IMG/VR virus record: IMGVR_UViG_3300029517_000011
Origin: a virus
Lineage: Duplodnaviria > Heunggongvirae > Uroviricota > Caudoviricetes
DNA: 31,484 nt
Reading direction: 5' to 3' (one strand)
This document shows, one piece after another, positions 4,561 through 24,639 of this stretch. Numbering within the stretch: the first letter of the stretch is position 1; each line of letters begins with the position of its first letter. The position numbers were made by a program, and so were the translations under genes. The notes below the pieces were generated by a model. It made no database searches. It saw only the letters and a list, made by a program, of their open reading frames with translations, and was not told the origin of the DNA.

Positions 4561-4708
4561 ATACAGCGAACTCCATTGGTTTAGTTGGATATTTACTGTG
4601 CTGGACAAAAACGGTTTGCGGGGAAATCTTAGTTAAGTAGAATGACTGCGGGTGCTTGAGGCTATCTGCCTCGGGCATGGACACCAACGGCAGATAGAGA
4701 AAAGCCCC

Positions 4709-6584
4709 AGTTAACATTACGCGTCCTGCAAGACGCTTAACATTAATCTGAGGCCAATTTCATGCTAGACACATGTAGGTTAGCCTCTTACGTGCCGAAA
4801 GGCACGGAGAAGCAGGCTATTGTTAACACCAAGCTGTAATGTCCCCTTTGAACCATTCTAAAATGTCCCCAGACAATTCTCTGGGGGATTTTTCATGACC
4901 AAAGAAACTGTTACGATGAGTCATAAGGAACTCCACCGACTTCAGATTATTCAGGAGTCAATTAATCGACATATTACTCAGGAACAAGCTGCGGCACGCA
5001 TTGGCATTTCTATTCGGCAGGTTAAACGTCTGGTGCAACGGTATAGAAATGAAGGGCCTTCTGGTCTGGTTTCCCACCGACGTGGAAAGCGTCCTAATAA
5101 TTCCTTTTCTACTGAATTCAGAGCAACAGTAATTTCACTCCTCAAAGGCCGTTACGCTGATTTTGGACCTACGTTTGCGTGCGAAAAATTGCGCGAGATA
5201 CACGGTTTATCTTTATCCGTTGAAACTCTCAGAAAGTGGATGATAGAAGAGGGGTTATGGCGTGAACGCCGTCGTAAAATTGCCCGTATATATCAACGCC
5301 GCATGCGACGACCATCTTACGGTGAACTGATCCAGATTGATGGCTCACCTCATGACTGGTTTGAAAATCGAGGCCCCAGATGTACACTGATCGTTTTCAT
5401 TGATGATGCCACCAGTGCGTTGATGGCGTTGCGTTTTGTGCCTGCTGAAACAACCCGGGCTTACATGGAAACCCTCCGGGGTTACCTTAATGATCATGGC
5501 GTACCGCTCGCTCTCTACTCTGATAGACACAGTATATTCAGGGTAAATAACCCAGAGCGGGAAGGTGAGCTGACCCAGTTCACTCGTGCGATAAAGACAC
5601 TGGGCATCGAGCCAATCCATGCCAACAGCCCGCAGGCAAAAGGGCGGGTAGAGCGCGCCAATCAGACACTACAGGACAGGCTGGTCAAAGAAATGCGGCT
5701 TCAGAATATCAGTGATATTGAAACAGCAAATGCATGGTTGCCGACCTTTATTGAAGCCTATAACAACCGGTTCGCTACGTCGCCTCGTACTACTGATAAT
5801 GCTCATCTTGATGTGCACCATTCTGAAGAGGAACTGGGTTATATCTTCAGCCTACAGGCGAAGCGCGTTCTGTCTAAAAATCTCACTTTCCAGTACAAAA
5901 GCAGTGCGTTTCAGGTACGCAGTGAGGGCCGGGGATATCGACTTAGGCATTCGGTTGTTACTGTATGCGAGAACTTTGACGGTGAAATTAACGTTCTGTA
6001 TGACGGGAAAGCGCTGGGCTGGGAAAAGTATGTTGATGGCCCGGAGCCTATACCACTGGATGATGAAAAGAGTGTCCATGAACGAGTGGATAATGCCCGT
6101 ATTGATTTACGCTCAAAATACTATGTTAAACCTAAAGCTGACCATCCCTGGCTTACGCGCCGAACGCAAAGTCATCAGCAAGTTAAGCCCCCGAAGTTAC
6201 CTAAAAAGAAGCCTGATCCCGATAAAAAAGATTGAAACCAAGATCGATTCGGTTGAGTGCATATCCATTCATAGGGTAGATTCTTAAGTCGCGTTTCTGG
6301 TGTTCATTTTCGGGTGGTTTGTTACTTGTTTTACCGGGGATATGCCAGAAACGCGCTGAGTCAGTCTGGGCGGTGCGCGTAATGAGGCGTTATGGTAAAT
6401 AGCCTATGCTAATGTCCGCTAAGAGCAAGAAGCGGAAGTTGGCAGTTTTGTGGACTGTCCCCACAAAAGTGACTACAGAAATAGTTGCAATTCATAATTG
6501 ATCATGGGTTGTCAGTTAAACTCGTGGCGATTTAAATAGACTAATTGGGAGTGCGTCCATTACTTATATCTTGTAATGTTAACT
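4709..6584 (+). mobile_element. Insertion sequence with a single rve-type DDE transposase; ends not resolved (4709 and 6584 are only a provisional 12-bp inverted match)
   Basis: Single transposase gene 4895-6235 with no second IS gene, interrupting the phage nin-like region. AGTTAACATTAC (4709-4720) is the reverse complement of 6573-6584. No convincing longer terminal inverted repeat found by eye. Confidence 0.3.
4895..6235 (+). CDS. IS transposase, HTH N-terminus plus rve integrase-core DDE domain (446 aa); IS481/ISNCY-like architecture
   Basis: ORF track 4895-6235. N-terminal HTH (ITQEQAAARIGISIRQVKRLV). Catalytic-core-like segments LIQIDGSPHDW, ALYSDRHSIF and ANSPQAKGRVERANQTL fit D, D, E spacing of retroviral-integrase-type transposases. 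SD GGGGGA sits inside a hairpin (4867-4886) before the ATG. Confidence 0.85.
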   Translation: MTKETVTMSHKELHRLQIIQESINRHITQEQAAARIGISIRQVKRLVQRYRNEGPSGLVSHRRGKRPNNSFSTEFRATVISLLKGRYADFGPTFACEKLREIHGLSLSVETLRKWMIEEGLWRERRRKIARIYQRRMRRPSYGELIQIDGSPHDWFENRGPRCTLIVFIDDATSALMALRFVPAETTRAYMETLRGYLNDHGVPLALYSDRHSIFRVNNPEREGELTQFTRAIKTLGIEPIHANSPQAKGRVERANQTLQDRLVKEMRLQNISDIETANAWLPTFIEAYNNRFATSPRTTDNAHLDVHHSEEELGYIFSLQAKRVLSKNLTFQYKSSAFQVRSEGRGYRLRHSVVTVCENFDGEINVLYDGKALGWEKYVDGPEPIPLDDEKSVHERVDNARIDLRSKYYVKPKADHPWLTRRTQSHQQVKPPKLPKKKPDPDKKD

Positions 6585-9793: not shown

Positions 9794-10171
9794 ATGACAG
9801 AATGCATAGAGTTTGTTTTGCCTTACCCGCCGACGGTGAACACCTACTGGCGCCGTCGTGGTAGTACATATTTTGTATCAAAAGCTGGTGAGCGTTATCG
9901 CCATGATGTGGAGCTTATTGTTCGCCAGCAGCGACTGAAATTAAATCTGTCCGGTAGGTTGGCAATCAGGATTATTGCAGAGCCACCGGATAAGCGCCGC
10001 CGCGACCTGGACAATATCCTGAAGGCACCACTGGATGCGCTGACACATGCAGGACTGCTTATCGACGATGAGCAGTTTGACGAAATCAATATAGTGCGCG
10101 GTTTGCCTGTTCCTGGTGGGCGACTGGGCGTGAATATTTTCGTAATAAGAGGTAGTAATGATGGTGCGTGA
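9794..10171 (+). CDS. rusA: Holliday-junction resolvase RusA (125 aa)
   Basis: ORF track 9794-10171. PYPPTVNTYW...DKRRRDLDNILKAPLDALTHAGLLIDDEQ shows the RusA pattern (acidic DxD catalytic region) and typical lambdoid nin-region position just before Q. Confidence 0.85.
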   Translation: MTECIEFVLPYPPTVNTYWRRRGSTYFVSKAGERYRHDVELIVRQQRLKLNLSGRLAIRIIAEPPDKRRRDLDNILKAPLDALTHAGLLIDDEQFDEINIVRGLPVPGGRLGVNIFVIRGSNDGA

Positions 10172-10529
10172 TATTCAGATGGTTCTTGAGCGGTGGGGGG
10201 CATGGGCTGCGAGTGATAGCTCTGGGGTAGACTATTCACCTATAGCAGCTGGTTTTAAGGGGCTTATGCCGCAGATAAGTAAAACACGAATTTCTTGTAC
10301 AGACGATGACGCTCTTATCATTGAGAGCTGCCTTGCTTTACTAAAAAAGAAAAAACCGTACGAACATTCTCTGATTGTGGCTCATTACCTATACGGCATC
10401 TCGAAACGGAAGATTGCAAAGGCACGCAAAAAAGATGAGAAATTGATACGGATAGAGATCCAGATGGCAGAGGGCTTTATCGATGGCTGTCTCTCAATGC
10501 TTGATGTTCGTCTCGAGATGGAATTGTGA
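10158..10529 (+). CDS. Late-gene antiterminator Q, short Q family (123 aa)
   Basis: ORF track 10158-10529. N-terminal IQMVLERWGAWAA motif typical of the roughly 125-aa phage antitermination-Q family; positioned between rusA and the lysis region. Confidence 0.7.
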   Translation: MMVRDIQMVLERWGAWAASDSSGVDYSPIAAGFKGLMPQISKTRISCTDDDALIIESCLALLKKKKPYEHSLIVAHYLYGISKRKIAKARKKDEKLIRIEIQMAEGFIDGCLSMLDVRLEMEL

Positions 10530-10545: not shown

Positions 10546-10573
10546 AAACGGCCTAAGGGCCGTTTTATTCTTC
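10546..10573. terminator. Convergent hairpin terminator shared by Q (plus) and the inverted cassette (minus)
   Basis: Perfect 8-bp stem AAACGGCC / GGCCGTTT with TAAG loop at 10546-10565, followed on the plus strand by TATTCTTC. Lies 17 nt after the Q stop and directly after the stop of minus-strand gene 10565-10993. Confidence 0.6.
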
Positions 10574-10993
10574 TTTAGTAACTTCAATAGGTAAAACTTC
10601 TACATTCTTACCAATGTTAACAATCTTTCTAACAGTTTCTTCCCGATCAGCAATAAGCTCAGCTTTAAATTTCTCGCTTAGATGAGGGCTTTTCAGTTGC
10701 TCATCAATACCTTTTAAATCTCTCTCAAGGCGATTTCTTAGGGCGGCTTCGGCTGGAGACTCAAGTCCATGTCGATTGATAACATACAACATAATGTAGG
10801 TTAGCATTGCTGACACTAATGGGGCGAGGGCATACAAAAAAGCTCTCCATTCACTATTAGGGTCAGGCGCCAATAGTGGTACCAATGTAGTTAGAACTGC
10901 GCCAATCCCGCCTGTTGTTAGACCAGAATTACTACTTAAAATGCTTTTTTTATCACCGCTCATTATTTGACTGCCTGTGCGCGGTTGCATCAT
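10565..10993 (-). CDS. Cassette gene 3: membrane protein (about 142 aa, two predicted TM helices, charged coiled C-terminus)
   Basis: ORF track 10565-10996; start among clustered ATG/TTG codons at 10990-10996. Hydrophobic stretches GIGAVLTTLVPLLA and FLYALAPLVSAMLTYIMLYVI. Overlaps the end of cassette gene 2. Confidence 0.6.
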   Translation of the reverse strand: MMQPRTGSQIMSGDKKSILSSNSGLTTGGIGAVLTTLVPLLAPDPNSEWRAFLYALAPLVSAMLTYIMLYVINRHGLESPAEAALRNRLERDLKGIDEQLKSPHLSEKFKAELIADREETVRKIVNIGKNVEVLPIEVTKEE

Positions 10994-11216
10994 CAATTAG
11001 CTCAACGATCTTCTTTCCATCTTTAGCATCTAAGTGGATAGTAATCGTTTTTTCAAGCATGCGTTCAGCACTGTAAAACCTTAGTTCTACGATTTTTGTA
11101 GGAAAAATTTTACGCCACAACAACGCGGAACCAGCATAAACAAAGCGATAGAAGGTCGGGAGACTTACAAGCACCCCCAACCAAAAAACGATTTGTAAAA
11201 GCTGTTGCTGAATCAT
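10953..11216 (-). CDS. Cassette gene 2: small membrane protein (87 aa, one N-terminal TM helix)
   Basis: ORF track 10953-11216. LLQIVFWLGVLVSLPTFYRFVYAG hydrophobic segment. Starts 15 nt after the stop of cassette gene 1. Confidence 0.6.
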   Translation of the reverse strand: MIQQQLLQIVFWLGVLVSLPTFYRFVYAGSALLWRKIFPTKIVELRFYSAERMLEKTITIHLDAKDGKKIVELIDDATAHRQSNNER

Positions 11217-11231
11217 TAGTTTCTACCAAAG

Positions 11232-12113
11232 CTAGATCAATTTTTTCCCTTGAATCACGCGATGACGAAGTACTTTCTTGATAACATACTTTTCTGTTTG
11301 TCCTCGTGCGGAAGTTGTACGTGTTGTTTCTAGAAGCACAGAAAACATATCTTCACTTGTGATCGTTCCCTCTGCTTGCCTTACTTTAGCTAAAAACTCA
11401 TAGTCTGTAAGTAGTACGGAGTGCTCATCTTGGTTGTAGTCCATCCTCCACCCCTTCTCACTATGAAAGTTAACTTGGGTAAATTTTACATTAACCTCTT
11501 TTTCTTCAACTGTTTTGGTCAAAAGCGTCCCTCTGGGAAGGGGTTTAATCTCTTCAGTTTGCTCTCCTTCAAGCTTGAGCAAAACTTTATCATTCTCATC
11601 TACAATTTTAAAAATGGGAGAGTCTTTACCATCTAAAGGAGCCTGAACAACAGAAATCAACGCATCCCGAATTGTTGGCTCAGTTACCAAGGTTGCAACT
11701 GCTGATGAGCATTCAATCTCACCATCTTCAAATTCAAGAACAGCCTTATCTGTTCCTGCTTTTTTGGTAATCGAAACAACTTTTTTTGAGCCTAATTGTC
11801 TTATTAACGATAAAGCGGTGGCATGAGCTGTTGCGCCCACAGTTCCAACAATCCCGATAGTTTGCAGAACGTCAATTGCATGCGGTAGGAGTTGCACTAC
11901 AGTATATGCAATACCCACAGATCCTTTCTGGATGGGGGCAGTGACTAAAATTTTTACAGATTTGTTGCCCTCATTTAACAAGCTATCAGCTTTATTAATA
12001 AGAGTTGTCATGGAAAGTATTGATTTACCAAGTGTTTCAGCGTCAATAGCATGCTTTGACAATTCTTTATCATTGGCGTCATAAAACACCTTAAAGGAAG
12101 TTGACTTCTCCAT
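11232..12113 (-). CDS. Cassette gene 1: soluble protein of unknown function (293 aa)
   Basis: ORF track 11232-12113. SD AAGGA 5 nt before ATG (minus-strand mRNA ...gcatagcAAGGAccgtcATG). No recognisable catalytic motif (no P-loop, HxD, etc.). Confidence 0.7.
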   Translation of the reverse strand: MEKSTSFKVFYDANDKELSKHAIDAETLGKSILSMTTLINKADSLLNEGNKSVKILVTAPIQKGSVGIAYTVVQLLPHAIDVLQTIGIVGTVGATAHATALSLIRQLGSKKVVSITKKAGTDKAVLEFEDGEIECSSAVATLVTEPTIRDALISVVQAPLDGKDSPIFKIVDENDKVLLKLEGEQTEEIKPLPRGTLLTKTVEEKEVNVKFTQVNFHSEKGWRMDYNQDEHSVLLTDYEFLAKVRQAEGTITSEDMFSVLLETTRTTSARGQTEKYVIKKVLRHRVIQGKKLI

Positions 12114-12371: not shown

Positions 12372-12400
12372 TTGCAACATTGATTTCGTAACGTTATTAT
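12372..12400 (+). promoter_or_regulatory. Sigma-70 promoter TTGCAA-N17-TATTAT immediately upstream of the tRNA cluster; candidate late promoter (PR-prime equivalent)
   Basis: TTGCAA at 12372-12377, 17-bp spacer, TATTAT at 12395-12400; first tRNA begins at 12410. Preceded by direct repeats GGTGATTTTT (12341-12350 and 12356-12365). Confidence 0.55.
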
Positions 12401-12409: not shown

Positions 12410-12485
12410 GGCCCTTTAGCTCAGTGGTGAGAGCGAGCGACTCATAATCGCCAGGTCGCTGGTTCAAATCCAGCAAGGGCCACCA
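12410..12485 (+). tRNA. tRNA with anticodon CAU, ileX/ileZ-like (tRNA-Ile2 lysidine type, or Met)
   Basis: Hand-folded cloverleaf: acceptor GGCCCTT/AAGGGCC, D-stem GCTC/GAGC, anticodon loop CUCAUAA, T-loop TTCAAAT, encoded CCA. Close to E. coli ileX as I recall it. Confidence 0.8.
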
Positions 12486-12486: not shown

Positions 12487-12563
12487 CCGCCACTAGCTCA
12501 TCAGGAAAGAGCGTCAACCCTTTAAGTTGAGTGTGCGAGGTTCGAGTCCCCGGTGGCGGTCCA
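12487..12563 (+). tRNA. Atypical tRNA: anticodon loop CCUUUAA (formal anticodon UUU, Lys-like) with C instead of U at position 33; C1-G72 acceptor pair
   Basis: Folds as a cloverleaf (acceptor CCGCCAC/GTGGCGG, D-stem GCTC/GAGC with GG in the loop, anticodon stem TCAAC/GTTGA, T-arm GGTTCGAGTCC, encoded CCA) but has a noncanonical position 33 and an A-C mismatch in the T-stem. Confidence 0.55.
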
Positions 12564-12565: not shown

Positions 12566-12641
<76 letters not shown>

Positions 12642-12644: not shown

Positions 12645-12719
<75 letters not shown>

Positions 12720-12925: not shown

Positions 12926-12950
12926 GCCCGCTTTTGCGGGCTTTTCTTTT
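12926..12950 (+). terminator. Intrinsic terminator between the tRNA cluster and the holin gene (candidate tR-prime-like Q-sensitive terminator)
   Basis: Perfect stem GCCCGC / GCGGGC with TTTT loop followed by TTTTCTTTT. Confidence 0.55.
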
Positions 12951-13010
12951 CAAATCCCTTTCATCTCTCAGTGTAAAACTACGCCATCCGTTATTTGCGG
13001 AGGTGAGGCT

Positions 13011-13226
13011 ATGAAATCCATGGACAAAATTTCAACTGGCATTGCCTACGGCACCTCCGCAGGCAGTGCTGGCTACTGGTTTTTACAGTGGCTTGATCAG
13101 GTCAGTCCGTCACAGTGGGCTGCGATTGGTGTGCTGGGGAGTCTGGTTCTGGGCTTCCTGACTTATCTGACAAATCTGTACTTCAAAATCAGAGAAGACA
13201 AGCGTAAGGCTGCGCGGGGAGAGTAA
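13011..13226 (+). CDS. Holin, phage-21 S-type (pinholin-like) with dual start motif (71/68 aa)
   Basis: ORF track 13011-13226. [28 protein letters not shown]... with Met1 and Met4 (antiholin/holin dual start), SD GGAGGTGAGG, two TM segments and a charged C-terminus. Confidence 0.85.
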
Positions 13227-13230
13227 TTTA

Positions 13231-13581
13231 ATGACTCAAAACTATGAACTGGTTGTTAAGGGAGTCCGCAATTTTGAGAATAAAGTTGCGGTAACTTTAG
13301 CCTTACGGAACAAAGAACGCTTTGACGGTGAAATTTTTGACCTGGACATCACCATGGACCGTGTTGAAGGTGCTGCGCTGGAGTTTTATGAGGCAGCAGC
13401 CAGAAGGAGAATCAGACAGGTATTTCTGGATGTTGCTGCCAGGTTATGTGAATGGGATGAGCCGTCGCCAGAAAAACGCCCCATAATTTTTGAGGCGCAG
13501 AATGTGTGGGTAACCTACAAAGGAAAGCTACCGGGAAGAATTACTTGTTCTCTGAAGACTCCTCCGGAATCGCAACCTTAA
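13231..13581 (+). CDS. Hypothetical protein (116 aa) inserted between holin and endolysin
   Basis: ORF track 13231-13581. SD GGAGAG 8 nt upstream of ATG. No TM segments; not a canonical lysis gene. Confidence 0.6.
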   Translation: MTQNYELVVKGVRNFENKVAVTLALRNKERFDGEIFDLDITMDRVEGAALEFYEAAARRRIRQVFLDVAARLCEWDEPSPEKRPIIFEAQNVWVTYKGKLPGRITCSLKTPPESQP

Positions 13582-13644
13582 GCCACTGACCGGAACAGAT
13601 AAACCTGTCCATGGGCAGAAACCGGTAAATTCTGATAAATATCC

Positions 13645-14178
13645 ATGAACGCAAAAATCAAATACGGCCTGTCAGCTGCCGTTCTGGCGCTGATTGCTGC
13701 AGGCGCGTCTGCTCCTCAAATACTTGACCAGTTTCTGGATGAAAAAGAAGGTAACCACACAACGGCATACCGTGATGGTTCTGGCATATGGACCATCTGT
13801 CGTGGTGCCACAATGGTGGATGGTAAGCCCGTCATACCGGGAATGAAGCTGTCGAAGGAAAAATGCGACCAGGTTAACGCTATTGAACGTGATAAGGCGC
13901 TGGCATGGGTGGAGCGCAATATTAAAGTACCACTGACCGAACCACAGAAAGCGGGTATAGCGTCATTTTGTCCCTATAACATTGGCCCCGGTAAGTGTTT
14001 CCCGTCGACGTTTTATAAGCGGCTGAATGCCGGTGATCGTAAGGGTGCATGCGAGGCGATTCGCTGGTGGATAAAAGATGGTGGGCGCGATTGCCGCATA
14101 CGTTCAAATAACTGCTATGGACAGGTTATTCGTCGTGACCAGGAAAGCGCATTAGCCTGTTGGGGGATAGATCAGTGA
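13645..14178 (+). CDS. Endolysin, lysozyme (T4-lysozyme-like fold) with N-terminal signal-anchor-release (SAR) segment (177 aa)
   Basis: ORF track 13645-14178. N-terminal hydrophobic [16 protein letters not shown] followed by a lysozyme catalytic region ([22 protein letters not shown]); the phage-21 R-type arrangement paired with a pinholin. Confidence 0.85.
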
Positions 14179-14612
14179 GCAGAGTCGCCGCGATTATTTA
14201 TGCTCTGGTTATCTGCATCATCGTCTGCCTGTCGTGGGCGGTCAATCATTACCGTGATAACGCCATCGCCTACAAAGAACAGCGCGACAAAGCCGCATCC
14301 ACTATCGCTGACATGCAGAAGCGTCAACGTGATGTAGCAGAACTCGACGCCAGATACACAAAGGAGCTTGCTGATGCTAACGCGACTATCGAAAGTCTCC
14401 GTGATGATGTTTCTGCTGGGCGTAAGCGGCTGCAAGTCGCCGCCTCCTGTGCAAAGTCAAAGACCGGAGCCAGCGGCATGGGCGATGGAGAAAGCCCAGG
14501 ACTTACAGCAGATGCTGAACTCAATTATTACCGTCTCCGAAGTGGAATCGACAAGATAACCGCGCAGGTTAACTACCTGCAGGAATACATCAGGACGCAA
14601 TGCCTGAAATAA
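14175..14612 (+). CDS. Spanin inner-membrane subunit Rz (i-spanin)
   Basis: ORF track frame 14160-14612 begins at TTG; I prefer GTG 14175, which overlaps the endolysin stop. Sequence [30 protein letters not shown] is close to lambda Rz as I recall it. Confidence 0.8.
14368..14559 (+). CDS. Spanin outer-membrane lipoprotein Rz1 (o-spanin), embedded in the +1 frame of Rz
   Basis: ORF track 14368-14559. Signal peptide ending in lipobox LLGVSGC; proline-rich mature part ([16 protein letters not shown]). Confidence 0.75.
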
Positions 14613-14643
14613 TTTTTTTGCAAATCACAAAGTCAATTTAATG

Positions 14644-14667
14644 AGCCTCGCGATGCGGGGCTTTTTT
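14644..14667 (+). terminator. Intrinsic terminator after the lysis cassette
   Basis: Stem GCCTCGC / GCGGGGC (one G-U pair) with GAT loop followed by TTTTTTA. Confidence 0.55.
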
Positions 14668-14814
14668 ATGTCCGCAGTAAACGCGCTTCACACGCGCGAC
14701 TTCTGAACACAGAACCTTTCAGGATGACCCTTGAGGATGCCGGTTTGGTTATCGGTGCCTTTCTGTGGGCCGGAATCCTGTGTGACAAGGTTCATCACTA
14801 AAAGGTAATTACCG

Positions 14815-15369
14815 ATGAATTATCCAACTATCGTTGACGGCATTGACTTCAAAGAACTGGTTTTTATTACCAACAATGACCCTGTCACCGATTCATTTAT
14901 GGTGGCGAAAGCATTTCGTAAGCGACATGACAACGTTGTGCGTGATGTAGAAAGAACTATCCCTGCTTGTCCTGAAGAGTTTGATACAAAACTCAATTTT
15001 GAGGTTTGCTATAAAAACAATGAGTTACAGAATGGTAAGCCACAAAAATTCTATCGGCTACGCAAGGATGGGTTGATGCTTTTGGTTATGTCCTACACCA
15101 AAAAAGAAGCAATGCGTATCAAAATTGCTTACATCAACGCATTCAACTGGATGTACGCCATGCTTCAGGTTGGTCATCGTCAATTTGAAGAAGAGCGAAA
15201 CGCCGTAATGCTGGAGTACATGAAAGAAAAGGATGTCGCCAGCATGTCTGGCCGTCTGCTCAATCGCTGGGGAAGAACGAAAAAACCTCAATTGCTTGCA
15301 AAGCTGGAACGTCTGGAGAAGCAAGGACAGTTTTTATTACCGGGATTCGATAAAGGCATTCAAGCCTGA
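14815..15369 (+). CDS. Rha-family phage regulatory protein (184 aa)
   Basis: ORF track 14815-15369. N-terminal LVFITNNDPVTDSFMVAKAFRKRHDNVVRDVERTI resembles the Rha/antirepressor N-terminal domain (KRHDNVLRDI-type motif). Confidence 0.55.
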   Translation: MNYPTIVDGIDFKELVFITNNDPVTDSFMVAKAFRKRHDNVVRDVERTIPACPEEFDTKLNFEVCYKNNELQNGKPQKFYRLRKDGLMLLVMSYTKKEAMRIKIAYINAFNWMYAMLQVGHRQFEEERNAVMLEYMKEKDVASMSGRLLNRWGRTKKPQLLAKLERLEKQGQFLLPGFDKGIQA

Positions 15370-15684
15370 CACATCATGCGCTGTATCGTCGCCGTATTCC
15401 CGTATTAACAGAGACCGTAGCCCGACGGGGAACTCCTTCTGCGCGAGTGTGCGGGAATAATCAAAAACGATGCACACCGGGTTTTTACCGCGTTTATGGT
15501 TCGCGGGTTTGTCCCTCATGCTCGCCAGTCCTGTGCGGGGGTGGAAGAAACAGGACACTTACACAGATTCTTGTGGGCACGATGCTATGCCTTTCTGGAT
15601 TATCCCGATGCCATTCATGCAAGGCGTTGTATCAGACGTTCGTCAGAGCTGTCAGGCTGACGGGTCCTCCCGGTGGGGTGGCCT

Positions 15685-15710
15685 GCCACGGGGCGGGAGC
15701 GTCGCGGAAA
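15685..15710. other. Candidate cos site (cosN-like GC-rich element) upstream of the terminase small subunit
   Basis: ACGGGGCGGGAGCGTCGCGG (about 15688-15707) resembles the lambda cosN region (ACGGGGCGGCGACCTCGCGGG from memory). Followed by an AT-rich region with an 8-bp inverted repeat ATGTCGAA...TTCGACAT and about 500 bp with no convincing ORF. Confidence 0.4.
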
Positions 15711-15876
15711 AAGGCTAGTTTTTGCATTTTTATCGGCCACCATCATCTTTGCATCTTATTGATTATTAATGGTTATTTTTTTTTTGCATGTCGAATTGAG
15801 TGTTTTTTGTTCGACATCGAACGCGTTTTCTTAAAGTTGTTCGCACGATGCATATTTAAAGCTCTCCGGAGGAAAT

Positions 15877-16368
15877 ATGGATCATGAGTTGAAAAACCTG
15901 GTGCTGAATATTAATCAACTGGCGGCTTTATCTGGTCTGCACCGCCAGACTGTCGTGGCAAGACTGAAAAACATTCGTCCCGCTGGTGGACATGACAAAC
16001 TCAAGCTATACCGGTTGACCGATATTCTGACTGAATTTATGGGGTTACCACCGCCGGTTGCTGAGGGCGAAATGGATCCACATGAACGCAAAGCCTGGTA
16101 TCAGTCTGAACGTGAGCGTCTTAAGTTCGAACAGGAAACGGCACAACTCATTCCGGCCAGTGATGTCAGACGGGAGTTTGCCATCTGGGCAAAAGCGGTC
16201 GTGCAGGTGCTGGAGACATTACCGGATATTCTTGAACGTGACTGCGGTCTGCAGCCTGCCGCTGTGAGCCGTGTTCAGTCCATTATTGATGATCTGCGCG
16301 ATCAGATAGCCCTGCGGGTGACTGAAGCAGGTGCGGATGATGAGGAGGAATTACAGCAGGAGGAGTAA
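15877..16368 (+). CDS. Terminase small subunit (Nu1-like, 163 aa)
   Basis: ORF track 15877-16368. SD GGAGGA; N-terminal HTH-like LNINQLAALSGLHRQTVVARL; 1-nt overlap with the large-subunit start (TAATG). Confidence 0.8.
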   Translation: MDHELKNLVLNINQLAALSGLHRQTVVARLKNIRPAGGHDKLKLYRLTDILTEFMGLPPPVAEGEMDPHERKAWYQSERERLKFEQETAQLIPASDVRREFAIWAKAVVQVLETLPDILERDCGLQPAAVSRVQSIIDDLRDQIALRVTEAGADDEEELQQEE

Positions 16369-18470
16369 TGCTGAATCAGGAAACCGCAAAGGCAGCACGA
16401 ACCGATTCAGGTTATATCCTTCGCGCACCGAGACGAATGCGGGTTGCTGATGCCGTTGCTCAGTATATGCGGGTGCCCATGGGGGCAGGGAACTCAGTCC
16501 CGTGGGATCCGCTGGTGGCACCGTATGTTATTGAGCCTATGAACTGCCTGGCCTCGCGTGAATACGACGCAGTGATATTTGTTGGCCCGGCACGAACCGG
16601 CAAGACTATCGGCCTGATTGACGGCTGGGTGATTTACAACGTGATTTGCGATCCTGCTGATATGCTGATCATTCAGATGACGGAGGAAAAAGCCCGCGAA
16701 CACTCCAAAAAACGACTCGCCAGAACGTTTCGCGTCAGCCCGGAAGTGGTCAGTCGCCTGAGTCCGAACAAAAATGACAACAACGTTTATGACAGAACAT
16801 TCCTTGCTGGTAACTACCTGAAAATCGGCTGGCCGTCAGTCAATATCATGTCCTCATCAGATTATAAATGCGTGGCGCTGACGGATTATGACCGTTTTCC
16901 GGAAGATATTGATGGCGAGGGGGATGCCTTCTCTCTTGCCTCAAAACGTACCACCACATTTATGTCCAGTGGTATGACGCTGGTGGAGAGTTCCCCCGGC
17001 AGGGATGTGAAGGATGTGAAATGGCGACGGACTTCACCGCATGAGGCTCCACCAACCACGGGGATACTGTCGCTCTATAACCGTGGCGATCGCCGTCGCT
17101 GGTACTGGCCCTGTCCACACTGTGGTGAGTATTTTCAGCCCTGCGGCGATGTGGTTGCTGGTTTCCGTGATATTGCCGATCCCGTGCTGGCAAGTGAGGC
17201 GGCTTATATTCAGTGCCCTTCCTGTTCAGGACGGATTATGCCTGAACAAAAACGTGAGCTGAACGGACGTGGGGTCTGGTTGCGGGATGGTGAATCCATC
17301 AATGCGGATGGCAGTCGTTATGGTGATCCCCGACGCTCACGTATTGCGTCATTCTGGATGGAGGGTCCGGCAGCTGCTTACCAGACACTCTCGCAACTCG
17401 TTTACAAACTGCTTACTGCAGAACAGGAATACGAGACAACCGGAAGTGAAGAAACACTCAGGGCGGTTATCAATACCGACTGGGGATTACCTTATCTTCC
17501 CCGCGCCAGCATGGAGCAACGAAAAAGTGAACTGCTTGAGCAGCGGGCAGAGCCAGTTCCTTCCCGCAGTGTGCCTGATGGCGTTAATTTCCTTGTGGCG
17601 ACAGTGGATGTGCAGGCGGGACGTCATCGCCGTTTTGTGGTTCAGGTAACGGGCTATGGCAGCCGTGGCGAACGCTGGATTATTGATCGTTACAACATCA
17701 CGCAGTCATTGCGCGGTGACAGCGACGGGGAGAGCCAGCGAATTGATCCGGCCAGCTATCCGGAAGACTGGGATGTCCTGCTGACGGATGTTTTTCATAA
17801 AAGCTGGCCGCTGGCCTCCGATCCTTCTCAACAAATGCGACTGATGGCAATGGCGGTGGACTCCGGCGGTGAAGACGGGGTCACTGATAATGCCTATAAA
17901 TTCTGGCGTCGTTGCCGTCGTGATGGCCTTGGTAAACGTATTTACCTGTTTAAGGGCGACAGCATCCGGCGCGCAAAACTGATCACTCGTACATTCCCTG
18001 ATAACACCGGACGAACGGGCCGACGGGCGCAGGCCTCAGGTGATGTGCCGCTCTGGCTTCTTCAGACGGATGCACTGAAAGACCGGGTGAATAACGCGTT
18101 ATGGCGTGACTCGCCAGGTCCCGGCTATGTGCATTTCCCTGACTGGCTGGGGAGCTGGTTTTACGACGAACTGACGTATGAAGAGCGGAGCAGTGACGGG
18201 AAATGGAGTAAGCCTGGTCGCGGTGCCAACGAAGCTTTTGACCTGATGGTGTATGCCGAGGCTCTGGTCATTCTGCATGGATACGAAAAGATCCGCTGGC
18301 CGGATGCACCGGAGTGGGCGAGCCGGGAAACCTGGCTGGAGTGTGTCCAGGACAGTACCGAACCGTCATCCTCACCGGAACCGGTATCCACGCCTGTTAA
18401 AAAACAAAAACGGAAGAAAACAGTAACTGACGATGTTAACCCCTGGCTGACTTCCGGAGGATGGTTATGA
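16368..18470 (+). CDS. Terminase large subunit (GpA-like, 700 aa)
   Basis: ORF track 16368-18470. Walker A-like VGPARTGKT; size and position typical of lambda-type terminase A. Confidence 0.85.
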   Translation: MLNQETAKAARTDSGYILRAPRRMRVADAVAQYMRVPMGAGNSVPWDPLVAPYVIEPMNCLASREYDAVIFVGPARTGKTIGLIDGWVIYNVICDPADMLIIQMTEEKAREHSKKRLARTFRVSPEVVSRLSPNKNDNNVYDRTFLAGNYLKIGWPSVNIMSSSDYKCVALTDYDRFPEDIDGEGDAFSLASKRTTTFMSSGMTLVESSPGRDVKDVKWRRTSPHEAPPTTGILSLYNRGDRRRWYWPCPHCGEYFQPCGDVVAGFRDIADPVLASEAAYIQCPSCSGRIMPEQKRELNGRGVWLRDGESINADGSRYGDPRRSRIASFWMEGPAAAYQTLSQLVYKLLTAEQEYETTGSEETLRAVINTDWGLPYLPRASMEQRKSELLEQRAEPVPSRSVPDGVNFLVATVDVQAGRHRRFVVQVTGYGSRGERWIIDRYNITQSLRGDSDGESQRIDPASYPEDWDVLLTDVFHKSWPLASDPSQQMRLMAMAVDSGGEDGVTDNAYKFWRRCRRDGLGKRIYLFKGDSIRRAKLITRTFPDNTGRTGRRAQASGDVPLWLLQTDALKDRVNNALWRDSPGPGYVHFPDWLGSWFYDELTYEERSSDGKWSKPGRGANEAFDLMVYAEALVILHGYEKIRWPDAPEWASRETWLECVQDSTEPSSSPEPVSTPVKKQKRKKTVTDDVNPWLTSGGWL

Positions 18471-18679
18471 ACCAGAATGATATCGAAGCCATGATTCAGC
18501 GTTATATGGAAGCTGAAATGGCGGTGCTGGACGGAAAATCCGTCACCTTTAATGGTCAGCAGATGACCATGGAAAACTTATCTGAGATCCGGCAGGGACG
18601 GCAGGAGTGGGAGCGCCGCCTTGCGGCTCTGATTACACGACGACGGGGGCATCCCGGGTACCGGCTGGCGAGGTTCTGA
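18467..18679 (+). CDS. Head-tail joining protein, gpW-like (70 aa)
   Basis: ORF track frame 18461-18679; ATG 18467 has better SD spacing from GGAGG (18456-18460). C-terminus RRRGHPGYRLARF resembles the lambda W C-terminus. Confidence 0.7.
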   Translation: MNQNDIEAMIQRYMEAEMAVLDGKSVTFNGQQMTMENLSEIRQGRQEWERRLAALITRRRGHPGYRLARF

Positions 18680-20187
18680 TGGCAATTCTTGATGATGTGA
18701 TTGGCGTTTTTTCACCTGGATGGAAAGCGGCAAGGCTGCGTTCCCGTGCGGTGATCCAGGCTTATGAAGCCGTAAAAACGACGCGGACACACAAAGCCCG
18801 ACGGGAGAACCGAACTGCCGACCAGCTAAGCCAGTACGGGGCCGTGTCGTTACGTGAGCAGGCCCGTTACCTTGATAACAACCACGATCTGGTTATTGGT
18901 GTATTTGACAAGCTGGAAGAACGGGTGGTGGGGAAAAACGGGATTATTGTCGAGCCACATCCGGTATTACGCAATGGGGCCATTGCCCGTGATCTGGCAG
19001 CGGAGATTCGCACCCGATGGAGTGAATGGTCTGTCAGCCCGGAAGTCACCGGGCAGTTTACCCGTCCGATGCTGGAACGTCTGATGCTGCGTACCTGGCT
19101 GCGCGATGGTGAGGTGTTTGCCCAGATGGTTTCCGGGCGCATAAACAGCCTGACGCCTTCTGCCGGTGTTCATTTCTGGCTGGAGGCGCTCGAGCCGGAC
19201 TTTATTCCCATGACCAGTGATGAGAGCAACAGGCTGAATCAGGGCGTGTTTGTTGATGACTGGGGGCGTCCCGAAAAATATCTGGTGTATAAAAGCCGTC
19301 CCGTATCCGGACGGCAGATGGAAACCAAAGAAGTGGATGCAGAGCGAATGCTGCATCTTAAATTTGTTCGCCGTCTGCACCAGATGCGCGGGACGTCTTT
19401 GTTGTCCGGTGTGCTGATCCGCCTCAGTGCCCTGAAAGAGTATGAGGATTCTGAGCTGACTGCAGCAAGGATCGCCGCTGCTCTGGGGATGTACATCCGG
19501 AAAGGCGACGGGCAGAGCTATGAACCGGATGGTAATGGCAGCAAGGATAAGGAACGCGAGCTTACCATTCAGCCAGGCATTATTTACGACGATCTGAAAC
19601 CCGGCGAAGAAATCGGAATGGTGAAGTCGGATCGCCCCAATCCTAACCTTGAAACTTTTCGTAATGGTCAGTTGCGTGCCGTGGCGGCGGGCAGTCGTCT
19701 GAGTTTTTCCAGTACAGCGCGCAACTATAACGGCACTTACAGCGCCCAGCGTCAGGAGCTGGTTGAATCCACTGATGGCTACCTGATCCTGCAGGACTGG
19801 TTTATTGGTGCCGTCACCCGCCCGATGTATCGTGCCTGGCTGAAACAGGCTGTGGCATCCGGTGTTATCAGGCTACCCCGCGATCTTGACCGTTCTTCAC
19901 TGTATACCGCGGTGTATTCCGGACCGGTGATGCCGTGGATTGACCCTGTTAAGGAGGCTGAGGCCTGGAAAATTCAGATTCGTGGTGGAGCAGCGACAGA
20001 ATCAGACTGGGTACGTGCAGGTGGTCGTAATCCGGATGATGTCAAACGTCGGCGCAAGGCCGAAATTGATGAAAACCGCAAGCTGGATCTGGTATTTGAT
20101 ACCGATCCGGCCAGTGATAAAGGAGGCAGCAGTGCCGCAACGAAACGACAGGAGCCGCAGCACACCGACGACCAGTCCGAAGAATAA
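18679..20187 (+). CDS. Portal protein (502 aa)
   Basis: ORF track frame 18607-20187; ATG 18679 overlaps the gpW stop (TGATG) with SD GGCGAGG. Size and position after terminase and W. Confidence 0.8.
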   Translation: MAILDDVIGVFSPGWKAARLRSRAVIQAYEAVKTTRTHKARRENRTADQLSQYGAVSLREQARYLDNNHDLVIGVFDKLEERVVGKNGIIVEPHPVLRNGAIARDLAAEIRTRWSEWSVSPEVTGQFTRPMLERLMLRTWLRDGEVFAQMVSGRINSLTPSAGVHFWLEALEPDFIPMTSDESNRLNQGVFVDDWGRPEKYLVYKSRPVSGRQMETKEVDAERMLHLKFVRRLHQMRGTSLLSGVLIRLSALKEYEDSELTAARIAAALGMYIRKGDGQSYEPDGNGSKDKERELTIQPGIIYDDLKPGEEIGMVKSDRPNPNLETFRNGQLRAVAAGSRLSFSSTARNYNGTYSAQRQELVESTDGYLILQDWFIGAVTRPMYRAWLKQAVASGVIRLPRDLDRSSLYTAVYSGPVMPWIDPVKEAEAWKIQIRGGAATESDWVRAGGRNPDDVKRRRKAEIDENRKLDLVFDTDPASDKGGSSAATKRQEPQHTDDQSEE

Positions 20188-20200
20188 TTCCTGGTTCAGG

Positions 20201-22159
20201 ATGCAGGCTGGTCACCAGAGTGACGCGGATATTTATATTTATGACGAGATTGGTTTCTGGGGGGTTACAGCGAAGCAGTTTATCAGTGATCTGAATGCAC
20301 TGGGCGATATCACTCACATTAATCTCCATATCAATTCACCGGGTGGCGATGTCTTTGAAGGCATCGCCATTTTTAATGCGCTGAAAACACATGGTGCGTC
20401 CATTACCGTTTATGTCGACGGTGTGGCGGCGTCAATGGCGTCGGTCATTGCGATGGTGGGAAACCCGGTCATTATGCCGGAAAACACCTTCATGATGATT
20501 CATAAACCATTTGGCTTTACGGGCGGTGATGCGGAGGACATGCGCACCTATGCCGACCTGCTCGATAAGGTTGAGGCGGTTCTGTTACCCGCTTATGCAC
20601 AGAAAACCGGGAAAACCACCGATGAAATTGCTGTCATGCTGGCGGATGAGACCTGGATGTCCGGTGCCGAATGTCTGGCACATGGATTTGCTGATCAGGT
20701 GACGCCAGCCGTTAAGGCAATGGCATGTATTCAGTCAAAACGTACAGAGGAATTTAAAAAGATGCCGGAATCCATTCGAAACATGATTACTCCGCCACGC
20801 AACAGTGCTCCACGCGTACAGGATGATGAACCTGCTGCCTCCCGGACGCCAGTGCAGGCAGCAGCACCCGTGGTGGATGAAAACAGTATCCGTGCGCAGG
20901 TACTGGCAGAGCAAAAAGCGCGTGTAAACGGTATTAATGATCTGTTTGCCATGTTTGGCGGGCGTTATCAGACGCTGCAGGCTCAGTGTCTTGCCGATCC
21001 TGAATGTTCGCTGGAGCAGGCCCGCGAAAAGCTGTTGAACGAGATGGGGCGCGAGTCCACGCCATCCAATAAAAATACCCCGGCTCATATTTATGCCGGT
21101 AACGGTAATTTTGTGGGGGACGGGATCCGCCAGGCGCTGATGGCGCGTGCCGGATTTGAAAAAACCGAACGTGATAATGTCTACAACGGGATGACCCTGC
21201 GTGAATATGCCCGTATGTCACTGACTGAACGGGGTATTGGGGTTTCCAGTTATAACCCGATGCAGATGGTCGGTGCGGCGTTCACACACAGTATGTCTGA
21301 CTTCGGTAATATTCTGCTGGATGTTGCGAACAAAGCCATTCTGCAGGGCTGGGAAGATGCCCCTGAAACCTATGAACAGTGGACGCGGAAAGGTCAGTTG
21401 TCTGATTTTAAAATTGCCCATCGTGTGGGTATGGGGGGCTTCAGTGCTCTGCGTCAGGTGCGTGAAGGGGCGGAATATAAATACGTCACCACCGGAGATA
21501 AACAGGCCACTATTGCACTGGCGACCTATGGCGAGCTGTTCAGTATCACCCGTCAGGCCATTATCAATGATGATCTGAATATGCTGACCGATGTCCCGAT
21601 GAAACTGGGCCGTGCGGCGAAATCCACTATTGCCGATCTGGTTTATGCCATTCTGACGTCTAACCCGAAAATCTCCACAGATAATGTAAGTCTGTTCGAT
21701 AAAGCGAAACATGCAAACGTACTGGAGAGCGCTGCAATGGACGTGGCATCGCTGGATAAAGCCCGCCAGTTGATGCGCGTTCAGAAAGAGGGGGAGCGTC
21801 ATCTGAATATTCGTCCTGCGTTCGTACTGGTACCGACGGCGATGGAGTCTGTTGCTAACCAGGTCATTCGCTCCTCAAGTGTCAAGGGGGCTGACATTAA
21901 CGCCGGTATTATTAACCCGGTGAAAGATTTTGCGACCGTTATTGCAGAGCCTCGTCTTGATGATAACAGCCAGACCACCTTCTACCTGGCTGCGTCAAAA
22001 GGCTCCGATACGATTGAAGTGGCTTATCTCAACGGTGTGGATACGCCATATATTGATCAGATGGAGGGCTTCAGTGTGGATGGCGTGACAACGAAAGTGC
22101 GTATTGACGCCGGTGTCGCGCCAGTTGATCACCGCGGTCTGGTGAAATGTACGGCGTAA
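20201..22159 (+). CDS. Prohead protease (ClpP/S49-like) fused in one frame to a major capsid protein domain (652 aa)
   Basis: ORF track frame 19940-22159; first ATG after the portal stop is 20201. N-terminal region HINSPGGDVFEGIAIFNAL...VDGVAASMASVIAMVG is ClpP-like; the C-terminal roughly 330 aa are capsid-like. Followed by a strong terminator. Confidence 0.7.
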   Translation: MQAGHQSDADIYIYDEIGFWGVTAKQFISDLNALGDITHINLHINSPGGDVFEGIAIFNALKTHGASITVYVDGVAASMASVIAMVGNPVIMPENTFMMIHKPFGFTGGDAEDMRTYADLLDKVEAVLLPAYAQKTGKTTDEIAVMLADETWMSGAECLAHGFADQVTPAVKAMACIQSKRTEEFKKMPESIRNMITPPRNSAPRVQDDEPAASRTPVQAAAPVVDENSIRAQVLAEQKARVNGINDLFAMFGGRYQTLQAQCLADPECSLEQAREKLLNEMGRESTPSNKNTPAHIYAGNGNFVGDGIRQALMARAGFEKTERDNVYNGMTLREYARMSLTERGIGVSSYNPMQMVGAAFTHSMSDFGNILLDVANKAILQGWEDAPETYEQWTRKGQLSDFKIAHRVGMGGFSALRQVREGAEYKYVTTGDKQATIALATYGELFSITRQAIINDDLNMLTDVPMKLGRAAKSTIADLVYAILTSNPKISTDNVSLFDKAKHANVLESAAMDVASLDKARQLMRVQKEGERHLNIRPAFVLVPTAMESVANQVIRSSSVKGADINAGIINPVKDFATVIAEPRLDDNSQTTFYLAASKGSDTIEVAYLNGVDTPYIDQMEGFSVDGVTTKVRIDAGVAPVDHRGLVKCTA

Positions 22160-22182
22160 ACGTCGCAGACAACAACTCTGAT

Positions 22183-22202
22183 GGCCCGTAAGGGCTTTTT
22201 TT
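22183..22202 (+). terminator. Intrinsic terminator after the capsid gene
   Basis: Stem GGCCC / GGGCC with GTAA loop followed by a 9-T run; a second hairpin lies at 22214-22232. Confidence 0.6.
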
Positions 22203-22245
22203 GTACCTGAAATCAGCCCCTGAACGGGGCTGTGCGGAGACAGTT

Positions 22246-22569
22246 ATGGCAAAGAATTTTGTAGAAGAAGGAAAAACGGTGGCGATTGTTGCCAGTGCAG
22301 CCATCAGCAGCGGAGATCTGGTGCAGGTGGGCGATGTTTTTGCGGTGGCGCTGACCGATATTCCACAGGGTGAAACAGGCGACGGCATGACCGAAGGTGT
22401 GTTTATGCTGCCTAAGCTGAAAACGGATGACATGAAAACGGGTAAGAAGGTTTATCTGAAGTCAGGAAAAGTTCAGCTGACTAACAGCGGCTCTGATCCG
22501 CTGGTCGGGGTTGTCTGGGCAGATGCCGGAACCAGTGCAGAAGAAGTGCCGGTAAAACTCAATGTCTGA
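22246..22569 (+). CDS. Small head structural or decoration protein (107 aa, DUF2190-like)
   Basis: ORF track frame 22201-22569 starts at TTG; ATG 22246 preceded by SD GGAG (MAKNFVEEGKTVAIVASAAISSGDLVQVGDV...). Confidence 0.6.
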   Translation: MAKNFVEEGKTVAIVASAAISSGDLVQVGDVFAVALTDIPQGETGDGMTEGVFMLPKLKTDDMKTGKKVYLKSGKVQLTNSGSDPLVGVVWADAGTSAEEVPVKLNV

Positions 22570-22837
22570 TCCCTTTTCCCGGCTGGCAGCGCGTATGGAT
22601 GCTATCACGGTCAGAAAGATGGGAAAGACAGCCTCGATTAATGATGTCGATATGACTGTGATCCCGGGAGAAACACTGGCAGAGCTGAATGCTCTGTCCG
22701 GACCTGCGGTCTCTCTGGTGGTGTTTTCTTCGGGATACCGCCCACGGCGCGGGGATCGCGTTGTTTATGACGGACAACAATGGACGGTCACACGGCATGA
22801 ACGCTTTAACGGTAAGCCAATGATCTTTATTGAGTAA
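22562..22837 (+). CDS. Head-tail connector / head completion protein (91 aa)
   Basis: ORF track 22562-22837. Overlaps the upstream stop; position between head and tail modules. Confidence 0.55.
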   Translation: MSDPFSRLAARMDAITVRKMGKTASINDVDMTVIPGETLAELNALSGPAVSLVVFSSGYRPRRGDRVVYDGQQWTVTRHERFNGKPMIFIE

Positions 22838-22848
22838 AGAGGTGTGGG

Positions 22849-23427
22849 ATGAAGGGGCTTGAGAATGCCATCCGCAATCTGAACAGCCTTGATACCCGTA
22901 TGGTGCCACAGGCCAGCGCATGGGCGATAAACCGTGTGGCACAGAAAGCGGTCTCGGTTGCCACCCGGCAGGTTGCCGGGAATACCGTTGCGGGAGATAA
23001 CCAGGTGAAAGGGATCCCCCTGAAACTGGTTCGTCAGCGTGTCCGGGTGTTTAAAGCCAGTCCGTCAGGAAAAATGACGGCCAGGATCCGCGTTAACCGG
23101 GGCAATCTGCCCGCCATTAAGCTGGGGACAGCCCGGGTCAGACTGACCCGGCGTGGTGGAAAACTGCAGTACCGTGGCAGTGTGCTGAAGGTGGGTAAAT
23201 ATCTTTTCCGGGATGCGTTTATTCAGCAACTGGCGAATGGTCGCTGGCATGTGATGCGGCGTATTGATGGCAAAAATCGTTACCCCATTGATGTGGTGAA
23301 AATCCCTCTGTCCGGACCGCTGACACAGGCATTTGAAGATGCCCGCGACCGCATCATTGCTGCGGAAATGCCGAAACAGCTGGGGTATGCACTGAAACAA
23401 CAACTGAGGTTATGGCTGACCCGATGA
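22849..23427 (+). CDS. Minor tail protein Z-like (192 aa)
   Basis: ORF track 22849-23427. SD AGAGG; same length as lambda gpZ and located before the U and V homologues. Confidence 0.7.
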   Translation: MKGLENAIRNLNSLDTRMVPQASAWAINRVAQKAVSVATRQVAGNTVAGDNQVKGIPLKLVRQRVRVFKASPSGKMTARIRVNRGNLPAIKLGTARVRLTRRGGKLQYRGSVLKVGKYLFRDAFIQQLANGRWHVMRRIDGKNRYPIDVVKIPLSGPLTQAFEDARDRIIAAEMPKQLGYALKQQLRLWLTR

Positions 23428-23825
23428 ACCGACATACACAAATCCGCCAGGTCGTACTGGCACGCCTTCGGGAACAGTGTGGAGACAGCGCCACGTTTTT
23501 TGACGGGCTTCCGGCATTTGTTGATGCGCAGGAACTGCCTGCCGTGGCGGTGTGGCTGAGTGATGCTCAGTACACCGGAAAAATGACGGATGAAGATGAC
23601 TGGCAGGCTGTTCTGCATATTGCTGTCTTCATCCGGGCACAGGCACCGGATTCAGAGCTGGATATGTGGATGGAGAGCACCATTTTCCCGGCCCTGAATG
23701 ATGTATCGGCACTTTCCGGACTCATCGACACCCTGATCCCACTCGGTTTTAACTATCAACGTGATAATGAGATGGCCACCTGGGCGATGGCGGAAATCAC
23801 GTACCAGATCACGTACACGAATTAA
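23424..23825 (+). CDS. Tail terminator protein U-like
   Basis: ORF track frame 23412-23825; ATG 23424 overlaps the Z stop (ATGA). ATFFDGLPAFVDAQELPAVAVWL...ELDMWMES resembles lambda gpU (TGATFFDGRPAVFDEADFPAVAVYL from memory). Confidence 0.75.
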   Translation: MNRHTQIRQVVLARLREQCGDSATFFDGLPAFVDAQELPAVAVWLSDAQYTGKMTDEDDWQAVLHIAVFIRAQAPDSELDMWMESTIFPALNDVSALSGLIDTLIPLGFNYQRDNEMATWAMAEITYQITYTN

Positions 23826-23835
23826 GGAGGTGGTA

Positions 23836-24579: not shown

Positions 24580-24599
24580 CAGGACGATACTCATCATTT

Positions 24600-24623: not shown

Positions 24624-24639
24624 GCAGGTGGAGAACATG

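Follow-up and report, generated by a model that had tools for sequence, protein, structure and literature searches.

The window analyzed here is the whole 31,484-nucleotide stretch of the IMG/VR virus record IMGVR_UViG_3300029517_000011, which is a lambdoid (lambda-like) prophage of Escherichia coli. Within a cluster of four tRNA genes it encodes a tRNA with the anticodon UUU and with C at position 33, named LysX in the following. LysX is a genuine gene of the tRNA type; its odd loop is a fixed feature of the lineage and neither a misfold nor a sequencing error. Allele comparison indicates that it is a form of argN, a phage tRNA-Arg gene, whose anticodon arm was remodelled and which evolved under selection for tRNA helices. 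With regard to function, we tentatively favor, at somewhat less than even confidence, that LysX is a structurally constrained, anticodon-switched phage tRNA, which would act as a nuclease-insensitive decoder of AAA/AAG with low efficiency. The gene and its unusual parts are located as follows.

12487 to 12563, + strand: LysX, a 77-nucleotide tRNA gene with anticodon UUU, C33, U73, and an encoded CCA end (ARAGORN, Rfam, argN alignment, covariation).
12514 to 12530, + strand: anticodon arm of LysX, UCAAC-CCUUUAA-GUUGA, with C33 at 12520 and UUU at 12521-12523 (sequence reading).
12538 to 12550, + strand: T-stem mismatch A51.C63 of LysX, formed by the two ends of the interval, 12538 and 12550 (Rfam, allele comparison).

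ARAGORN assigned a tRNA-Lys(ttt) to exactly 12487-12563 on the + strand. The Rfam model RF00005 covered 12487-12560 at full length with 44.4 bits (gathering score, 29), gave the same cloverleaf as ARAGORN, and flagged one non-standard pair in the T stem. By direct reading, the acceptor stem is CCGCCAC/GUGGCGG with C1-G72, and the D stem GCUC/GAGC closes the D loop AUCAGGAAA with A14 and G18G19. The anticodon stem UCAAC/GUUGA closes the loop C32 C33 U34 U35 U36 A37 A38 (12519-12525). The T stem CGAGG/CCCCG contains the A51.C63 mismatch and carries the T loop UUCGAGU; U73 is at 12560, and the CCA end is encoded. All bases of the tertiary contacts (U8, A14, G18G19, A21, U54-U55-C56, A58, and C61) are kept in the window copy. 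An earlier sequence-only reading of this DNA had described a good cloverleaf with a CCUUUAA loop, C33, a UUU anticodon, C1-G72, an A-C pair in the T stem, and CCA, and both programs returned this same fold. A standard loop found by tRNA software under another fold had been named there as the result that would overturn the description. Such a fold or register was ruled out, as ARAGORN and Infernal, the latter with the Rfam model, agreed on the cloverleaf and kept the C33 loop. Thermodynamic folding was uninformative, because even the canonical neighbor tRNAs did not form a cloverleaf at minimum free energy.

LysX has the UUU anticodon of bacterial tRNA-Lys, carries U73 instead of the discriminator A73, and lacks the U33 of the tRNA family, with C at 12520. 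The statement of the sequence-only reading that the loop differs from that of host tRNA-Lys holds for position 33 only, which is the sole difference from the host loop CUUUUAA. The remainder of LysX is unrelated to K-12 lysT, with similarity in the pairwise alignment confined to universally conserved tRNA positions, and homology to argN had been missed. Among 128 distinct tRNAs from ∼2 Mb of sampled DNA, U33 was present in 105; the others were 22 LysX alleles and one tRNA-Val. The latter is a tRNA-Val(GAC) with C33 called by ARAGORN in an unrelated Acidimicrobiales metagenome-assembled genome (L128). In other genomes, the sequence identical to LysX is labelled tRNA-Lys by the Prokaryotic Genome Annotation Pipeline (PGAP), which relies on tRNAscan-SE.

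LysX aligns over its full length with argN, the tRNA-Arg(UCG) gene of the ileZ-argN-argO cluster of Shiga toxin (Stx)-converting phages. Both genes share the same slot, one base after ileZ and downstream of Q, and the nearest argN allele has 84% identity to LysX. The classes of the family were recovered by pattern scans of IMG/VR. The scans yielded two discrete classes; none of the sequences retrieved had an arm intermediate between those of argN and LysX.

Arg class: anticodon stem UCAGC or CCAGC, loop CUUCGAA, cluster Ile2-Arg(UCG)-Arg(UCU).
LysX class: anticodon stem UCAAC, loop CCUUUAA, cluster Ile2-LysX-Thr-Gly, or Ile2-LysX-Arg(UCU) in PPompW prophages.

C1-G72, U73, A20, the D arm, and the T arm are common to argN and LysX, and the A51.C63 mismatch is also found in the F349-type argN allele. 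Unlike argN, LysX shows eight states, at positions 7, 30, 33, 35, 36, 40, 43, and 44, that are absent from ∼35 argN alleles. Six of the eight fall within the 17-nucleotide anticodon arm (Fisher p = 0.0011), and position 44 abuts it. In the loop, CUUCGAA became CCUUUAA; the arginine anticodon UCG with C35 and G36 was lost, and A20 was kept. No helix is broken by the eight changes. The 30:40 pair changed from G-C to A-U in a compensated manner, 27:43 became U-A, and U7.G66 became C7-G66. Over 30 distinct argN and LysX alleles, 97.6% of cells were paired. Changes on both sides were seen at four pairs, three of which (7:66, 27:43, and 30:40) are those that separate LysX from argN. Judged from these alleles, compensated swaps of this kind would not be expected if a dead gene were decaying neutrally. 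As an alternative origin, the LysX arm may have been received from some functional donor.

LysX was counted in 798 of the 5426 complete E. coli genomes; it also appears in 15 deposited phage records, with four independent isolates among them. Among GTDB species representatives it was found only in E. coli and Shigella flexneri; the other 21 GTDB matches were discarded as chance or unrelated tRNAs. In 118 IMG/VR copies, which were sampled by a 3′-end anchor and not by the anticodon arm, C33-U34-U35-U36-A37-A38 was invariant, and position 32 was C, U, or A. Because the chance of an invariant 33-38 at the observed density of variable sites is ∼0.08, the invariance is to be read as a trend. No U33 form of LysX was found in the 5426 complete E. 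coli genomes, where the best match to a U33 query was 98.7%, or in IMG/VR, where a non-C33 pattern retrieved only an unrelated tRNA-Arg(CCU). LysX and its three neighbors have 20-24 segregating sites per 100 nucleotides and the flanks more than 90; since the flanks are mosaic and partly non-homologous, this comparison is weak evidence.

Two phage isolates, 606R7 and 689R5, have the canonical LysX allele, PhiR47_1 carries a near-neutral variant (C2U, U45A), and the allele of phage Evi has a C7.A66 mismatch and G3.U70. In five IMG/VR contigs, C63U restores the 51:63 pair. The acceptor pair G3.U70, the major identity element for AlaRS, was seen in L001 at 1608-1684 (argN of Stx2a_F349), in L003 and L153 (LysX of PPompW), and in L205 (Evi), and the window copy has G3-C70. 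Judged by this pair, alanine mischarging of a tRNA with an Arg or Lys anticodon is a possibility in these alleles. A separate observation concerns L164, L168, L175, and two more IMG/VR contigs, which have a thrU-like tRNA with G35U and A26G (homologous to window position 12600). Its anticodon is UUU, its loop is CUUUUAA, and it has A73, so that it resembles a canonical decoder of Lys codons built on a Thr body. The loci with this tRNA are also those with the most altered LysX (C4U, U8C, C11U, C63U, and U73G). It may represent a second independent route to a phage UUU tRNA or a chance event in one clone.

P2-OLD, one of the nucleases considered for LysX, is the classic excluder of lambda. Host tRNA-Lys(UUU) is attacked by AriB of the PARIS system (PMC12409363), by PrrC (PMC2275089), and, less efficiently, by P2-OLD (PMC12445682). 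In host tRNA-Lys the AriB site is U36-A-A-U-C/A41, with the cut at the slash, and the single substitution U39A abolishes cleavage (PMC12409363). The equivalent site of LysX is U36-A-A-G-U-U41, with GUU instead of UCA at positions 39-41. P2-OLD requires paired CNG motifs at 28-30 and 40-42 (PMC12445682). Both motifs are present in argN (CAG/CUG), and the A30:U40 swap removes both from LysX. PrrC cuts between positions 33 and 34 (PMC2275089), and C33 of LysX adjoins this scissile bond; no data on a U33C substitution were found in the literature on PrrC. By this comparison with published motifs, LysX resembles nuclease-evading phage tRNAs in having the targeted anticodon UUU together with changed recognition and cleavage positions. 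The loop has also gained a predicted context for t6A37. The strict determinant of this modification is U36-A37-A38, and the bacterial enzyme makes no base-specific contact at position 33 (PMC13276492). In LysX, U36-A37-A38 is newly created.

The same features were considered for a decoy or inhibitor, in which LysX would be a look-alike of tRNA-Lys that titrates a nuclease or a modification enzyme, remains uncut, and stays outside translation. LysX would then present UUU in a loop that is changed at the scissile position of PrrC, with the AriB and P2-OLD motifs missing, and over-expressed viral tRNAs have been raised as possible AriB inhibitors in the AriB study (PMC12409363). A single-copy prophage gene would however be a weak titrant against the abundant host tRNA-Lys, and we regard the decoy as improbable.

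The placement of LysX is given by the following features.

12410 to 12485, + strand: tRNA-Ile2 (CAU), homologue of ileZ, with its CCA end one base before the 5′ end of LysX (ARAGORN, Rfam; tRNA-Ile in PGAP; ileZ of Stx phage).
12566 to 12641, + strand: tRNA-Thr (UGU), 100% identical to host thrU (ARAGORN, host alignment).
12645 to 12719, + strand: tRNA-Gly (UCC), 100% identical to host glyT (ARAGORN, host alignment).
12372 to 12400, + strand: sigma-70 promoter-like site TTGCAA, 17-nucleotide spacer, TATTAT; candidate pR′-like late promoter (consensus match only).
12926 to 12951, + strand: intrinsic-terminator-like hairpin GCCCGC-UUUU-GCGGGC with a T run; candidate tR′ (consensus match only).
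10158 to 10529, + strand: late antiterminator gene Q, upstream of the cluster (Pfam PF06530, E = 5e-52).
13011 to 13226, + strand: gene for a class II holin, with which the lysis genes downstream of the cluster begin (open reading frame; PGAP annotation of the identical locus).

The three neighbors had been taken as canonical by the sequence-only reading (Ile2/CAU, Thr/UGU, and Gly/UCC), which their Rfam scores of 72.5, 73.8, and 64.9 bits, respectively, bear out; ARAGORN labels the first one Met/Ile2 (CAU). A junction between Q and S in a lambdoid prophage had also been proposed and agrees with Q upstream and the holin gene downstream of the cluster. The spacers between the tRNAs are 1, 2, and 3 nucleotides long. 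The promoter-like site ends ∼10 nucleotides upstream of the first tRNA, and the terminator-like hairpin stands between the cluster and the holin gene. By analogy with pR′-tR′ of lambda, the four tRNAs would occupy the leader of the late transcript.

Taken as a decoder, LysX would have arisen from the argN lineage of lambdoid and Stx phages via remodelling of the anticodon arm. It would be transcribed in one tightly packed four-tRNA transcript, from the late-promoter-like site to the terminator immediately ahead of the lysis genes, and its release together with its neighbors would presumably be by RNase P. LysRS would charge it via the UUU anticodon, weakened by U73. The lysylated tRNA would then decode AAA and AAG with low efficiency and help late gene expression when host tRNA-Lys is attacked. 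The benefit to the phage would be an anticodon arm that is predicted to be no substrate for PARIS AriB, P2-OLD, or PrrC in abortive infection. A more far-reaching proposal, which we consider doubtful, is that of a dedicated counter-defence tRNA. In this proposal an Arg scaffold would have been turned into a Lys decoder. Its foreign body and its remodelled anticodon stem would hide it from the Toprim nucleases AriB and P2-OLD, and a PrrC-type cut between positions 33 and 34 would be blocked by C33.

Several observations weigh against a decoder. Almost all elongator tRNAs have U33, which supports the U-turn needed on the ribosome (PMC5041475, PMC13276492). LysX has the A.C mismatch in the T stem, and its Rfam score is 20-30 bits under those of its neighbors. 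Lysine identity in E. coli has the anticodon triplet as principal determinant, together with A73, and the change of A73 to any other base lowers lysine acceptance (PMC9976931); lysine charging of LysX should therefore drop with U73. The neighbor Thr tRNA has exactly the sequence of thrU, the main target of both P2-OLD and AriB, and because it is a sensitive allele the cluster is not a coherent resistant set. The retained A20 makes the amino acid charged to LysX uncertain. A20 is the main determinant for E. coli ArgRS and C35 the other major one, and U36 is acceptable to the enzyme (PMC9976931). LysX might accordingly keep its Arg identity via A20 and insert arginine at Lys codons, or be charged ambiguously. 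A precedent for a non-U33 elongator with an identity change is the Candida tRNA-Ser(CAG) with G33 (PMC5041475). We hold arginine or ambiguous charging to be very improbable, as C35 is lost and a proteome-wide replacement of Lys by Arg would be of no obvious benefit to the phage.

Codon usage also weighs against a Lys decoder. In the late genes (+ strand open reading frames of window positions 13000-31484), AAA was not enriched by codon count; this codon is abundant and has six host genes to serve it, so that there is no codon-supply rationale for LysX. In the same open reading frames, the frequencies per 1000 codons were 6.6 for ATA, 11.5 for ACA, 13.8 for GGA, 5.8 for AGA, 4.5 for AGG, and 7.6 for CGA, which we take to be ∼1.5 to 3.7 times typical E. 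coli values. A role in codon supply for the Ile2, Thr, and Gly tRNAs, and likewise for the Arg tRNAs of sister clusters, would be consistent with the enrichment of these codons.

The open reading frame resembling the tail-assembly-chaperone gene G ends with CCG GAA AAG TCC TGA (window 25012-25026), and a T-like open reading frame follows at 25035-25364 in the -1 frame. The G/T overlap is likely a programmed frameshift site with a Lys AAG codon; the slip-site sequence differs from the lambda heptamer GGGAAAG. A connection between LysX and this site was considered and dropped, as nothing ties the AAG slip codon to LysX. The site bears on altered decoding, in which a weak U-turn would make LysX prone to shift at the tail-chaperone -1 site, or the U-turn would be moved to U34 so that U35-U36-A37 reads UAA. 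The Lys AAG at the presumed slip site, with T in the -1 frame, and the UUA one base downstream of the formal anticodon could be cited for it. The loop nevertheless has the standard 7 nucleotides and the stem the standard 5 base pairs, the tail-chaperone frameshift works in lambdoid phages without such a tRNA, and the late genes showed no in-frame stop codons. Altered decoding is purely speculative and appears extremely improbable.

The state of the LysX copies outside the window provides the remaining points against a decoder. The window copy has only C33 and the inherited A.C pair as traits of a pseudo-tRNA, and ∼36% of the sampled copies elsewhere carry extra damage. The combination C4U, U8C, and C11U occurs in ∼20% of the copies, so that U8 is lost in about a fifth, and a one-base deletion in the D stem (deletion of U12, PPompW type) occurs in ∼11%. 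G24A/U and C25A in the D arm also belong to the common damage. Rarer defects are breaks in the D or T stem, and one copy is heavily mutated, including G18A. Damaged variants were undetected by Rfam even at E ≤ 1 and were left unannotated by PGAP, with the flanking tRNAs at these loci scoring 57-74 bits in Rfam. PGAP calls only ∼45% of the LysX copies in E. coli genomes, and about half are called neither by PGAP nor by Rfam. As a control, all sampled argN alleles were annotated by PGAP, at 90.9% to 100% identity; this contrast partly reflects the low baseline score of LysX. Detection by ARAGORN was discarded as a gauge of decay, as the program was too lenient and called 97 of 99 copies. In IMG/VR, defects were found in about one third of the argN copies as well. 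A claim that LysX decays faster than a working tRNA was downgraded on this account, and the decay is not clearly specific to LysX.

These data bear most directly on the alternative that LysX is a translationally inert relic of argN, with C33 and a mutated anticodon, that is wedged among useful tRNAs and kept as punctuation for RNase P. The minihelix of acceptor and T arm would still direct RNase P to the site where cleavage releases tRNA-Ile2 at its 3′ end. With spacers of 1-3 nucleotides, this 3′ end would depend on 5′ cleavage of LysX. The common damage is in the D arm and at U8, with the acceptor and T arms still paired, as selection for RNase P processing alone would allow. C33, U73, A51.C63, the low Rfam score, the large share of E. 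coli copies uncalled by PGAP and Rfam, and the lack of an apparent need for a Lys codon supply point in the same direction. The anticodon stem, on the other hand, is not needed by RNase P, and it is inside this stem that the compensated swap and the upgrade from U.G to U-A are found. The invariance of 33-38 in the 118 copies, as a trend, and the similar damaged share in argN, a presumed working tRNA, also argue against a relic. We consider an inert relic to be possible, on the unlikely side, and nearly as likely as the decoder. The sequence-only reading had left a choice between a functional tRNA with altered decoding, a pseudo-tRNA, and a decoy. A real tRNA-type gene is upheld and altered decoding found no support; sequence analysis does not distinguish among a working tRNA, a relic, and a decoy.

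Further observations were made on the prophage around the cluster. The gene order is a DUF968 gene, rusA, Q, three reverse-strand open reading frames, the tRNA cluster, holin, ydfR, lysozyme, Rz, and terminase. The three minus-strand open reading frames (293, 87, and 143 amino acids) lie at 10565-12113, inserted between Q and the tRNA cluster. For the 293-amino acid protein, PADLOC gave a match to its candidate-defence model PDC-S42 (E = 4e-27), and Pfam gave none. A functional link of the PDC-S42 module with LysX was rejected, as the module is missing from other LysX loci. The Thr and Gly genes of the prophage are 3 nucleotides apart, and the host operon has tyrU and a 116-nucleotide spacer between thrU and glyT; the arrangement suggests that the prophage copies arose by capture of host genes with subsequent deletion, or that gene conversion is ongoing. 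In the early region, a full-length sok antitoxin RNA was detected by Rfam at 4650-4821 on the + strand (104 bits). At the identical locus of strain AMSHJX01 the annotation includes hokD, and the two together indicate a type I toxin-antitoxin module. The small RNA STnc100 (RF02076) is located just downstream of the tRNA cluster in related prophages, in L004 at 1880-2085 (158 bits) and in L153 at 2439-2611 (101 bits); in this window it went undetected.

Recent work has shown that infection can be rescued by phage tRNAs from defences that cleave tRNA, with host tRNA-Lys(UUU) as a repeated target, and the rescuers that we found described so far are only variants of the cognate tRNA. One close system is phage T5's PARIS-resistant tRNA-Lys(UUU) (PMC11464382, PMC12409363). 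Like LysX it is phage-borne, has the anticodon UUU, and differs from the host AriB site at positions 39-41. It is described as a tRNA-Lys variant with few substitutions near the anticodon stem-loop, whereas LysX has an Arg-type body, C33, and U73. Resistance and rescue have been demonstrated for the T5 tRNA, and the likeness of LysX to it rests on sequence. The tRNA-Thr(UGU) of the lambdoid phage 21 is partly resistant to P2-OLD, with anticodon-stem mutations near both cleavage sites (PMC12445682). It is another isoacceptor than LysX, and the Thr tRNA of the window has the sensitive host thrU sequence. Precedents for tRNAs without U33 are C33 in many eukaryotic initiator tRNA-Met and G33 in the Candida tRNA-Ser(CAG) (PMC5041475), and in the latter, as in LysX, the absence of U33 is coupled to a changed meaning of the anticodon. 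These eukaryotic tRNAs have documented functions, whereas LysX is an elongator-type tRNA of a bacterial virus that is known from its sequence. Literature searches on ileZ/argN and on prophage tRNAs found no paper that discusses LysX.

If LysX were inert, it would illustrate cleanly how a tRNA-like element can be retained as processing punctuation. Caution would then also be due, as annotation pipelines call this sequence tRNA-Lys across hundreds of E. coli genomes. If the decoder reading is true, a tRNA with a Lys anticodon on an Arg body and with a fixed non-U33 would represent a different evolutionary route to nuclease escape, and LysX would provide a natural test of the importance of U33 in bacterial elongation. 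A counter-defence role, if true, would place a natural, functional elongator-type bacterial tRNA without U33 in ∼15% of E. coli genomes.

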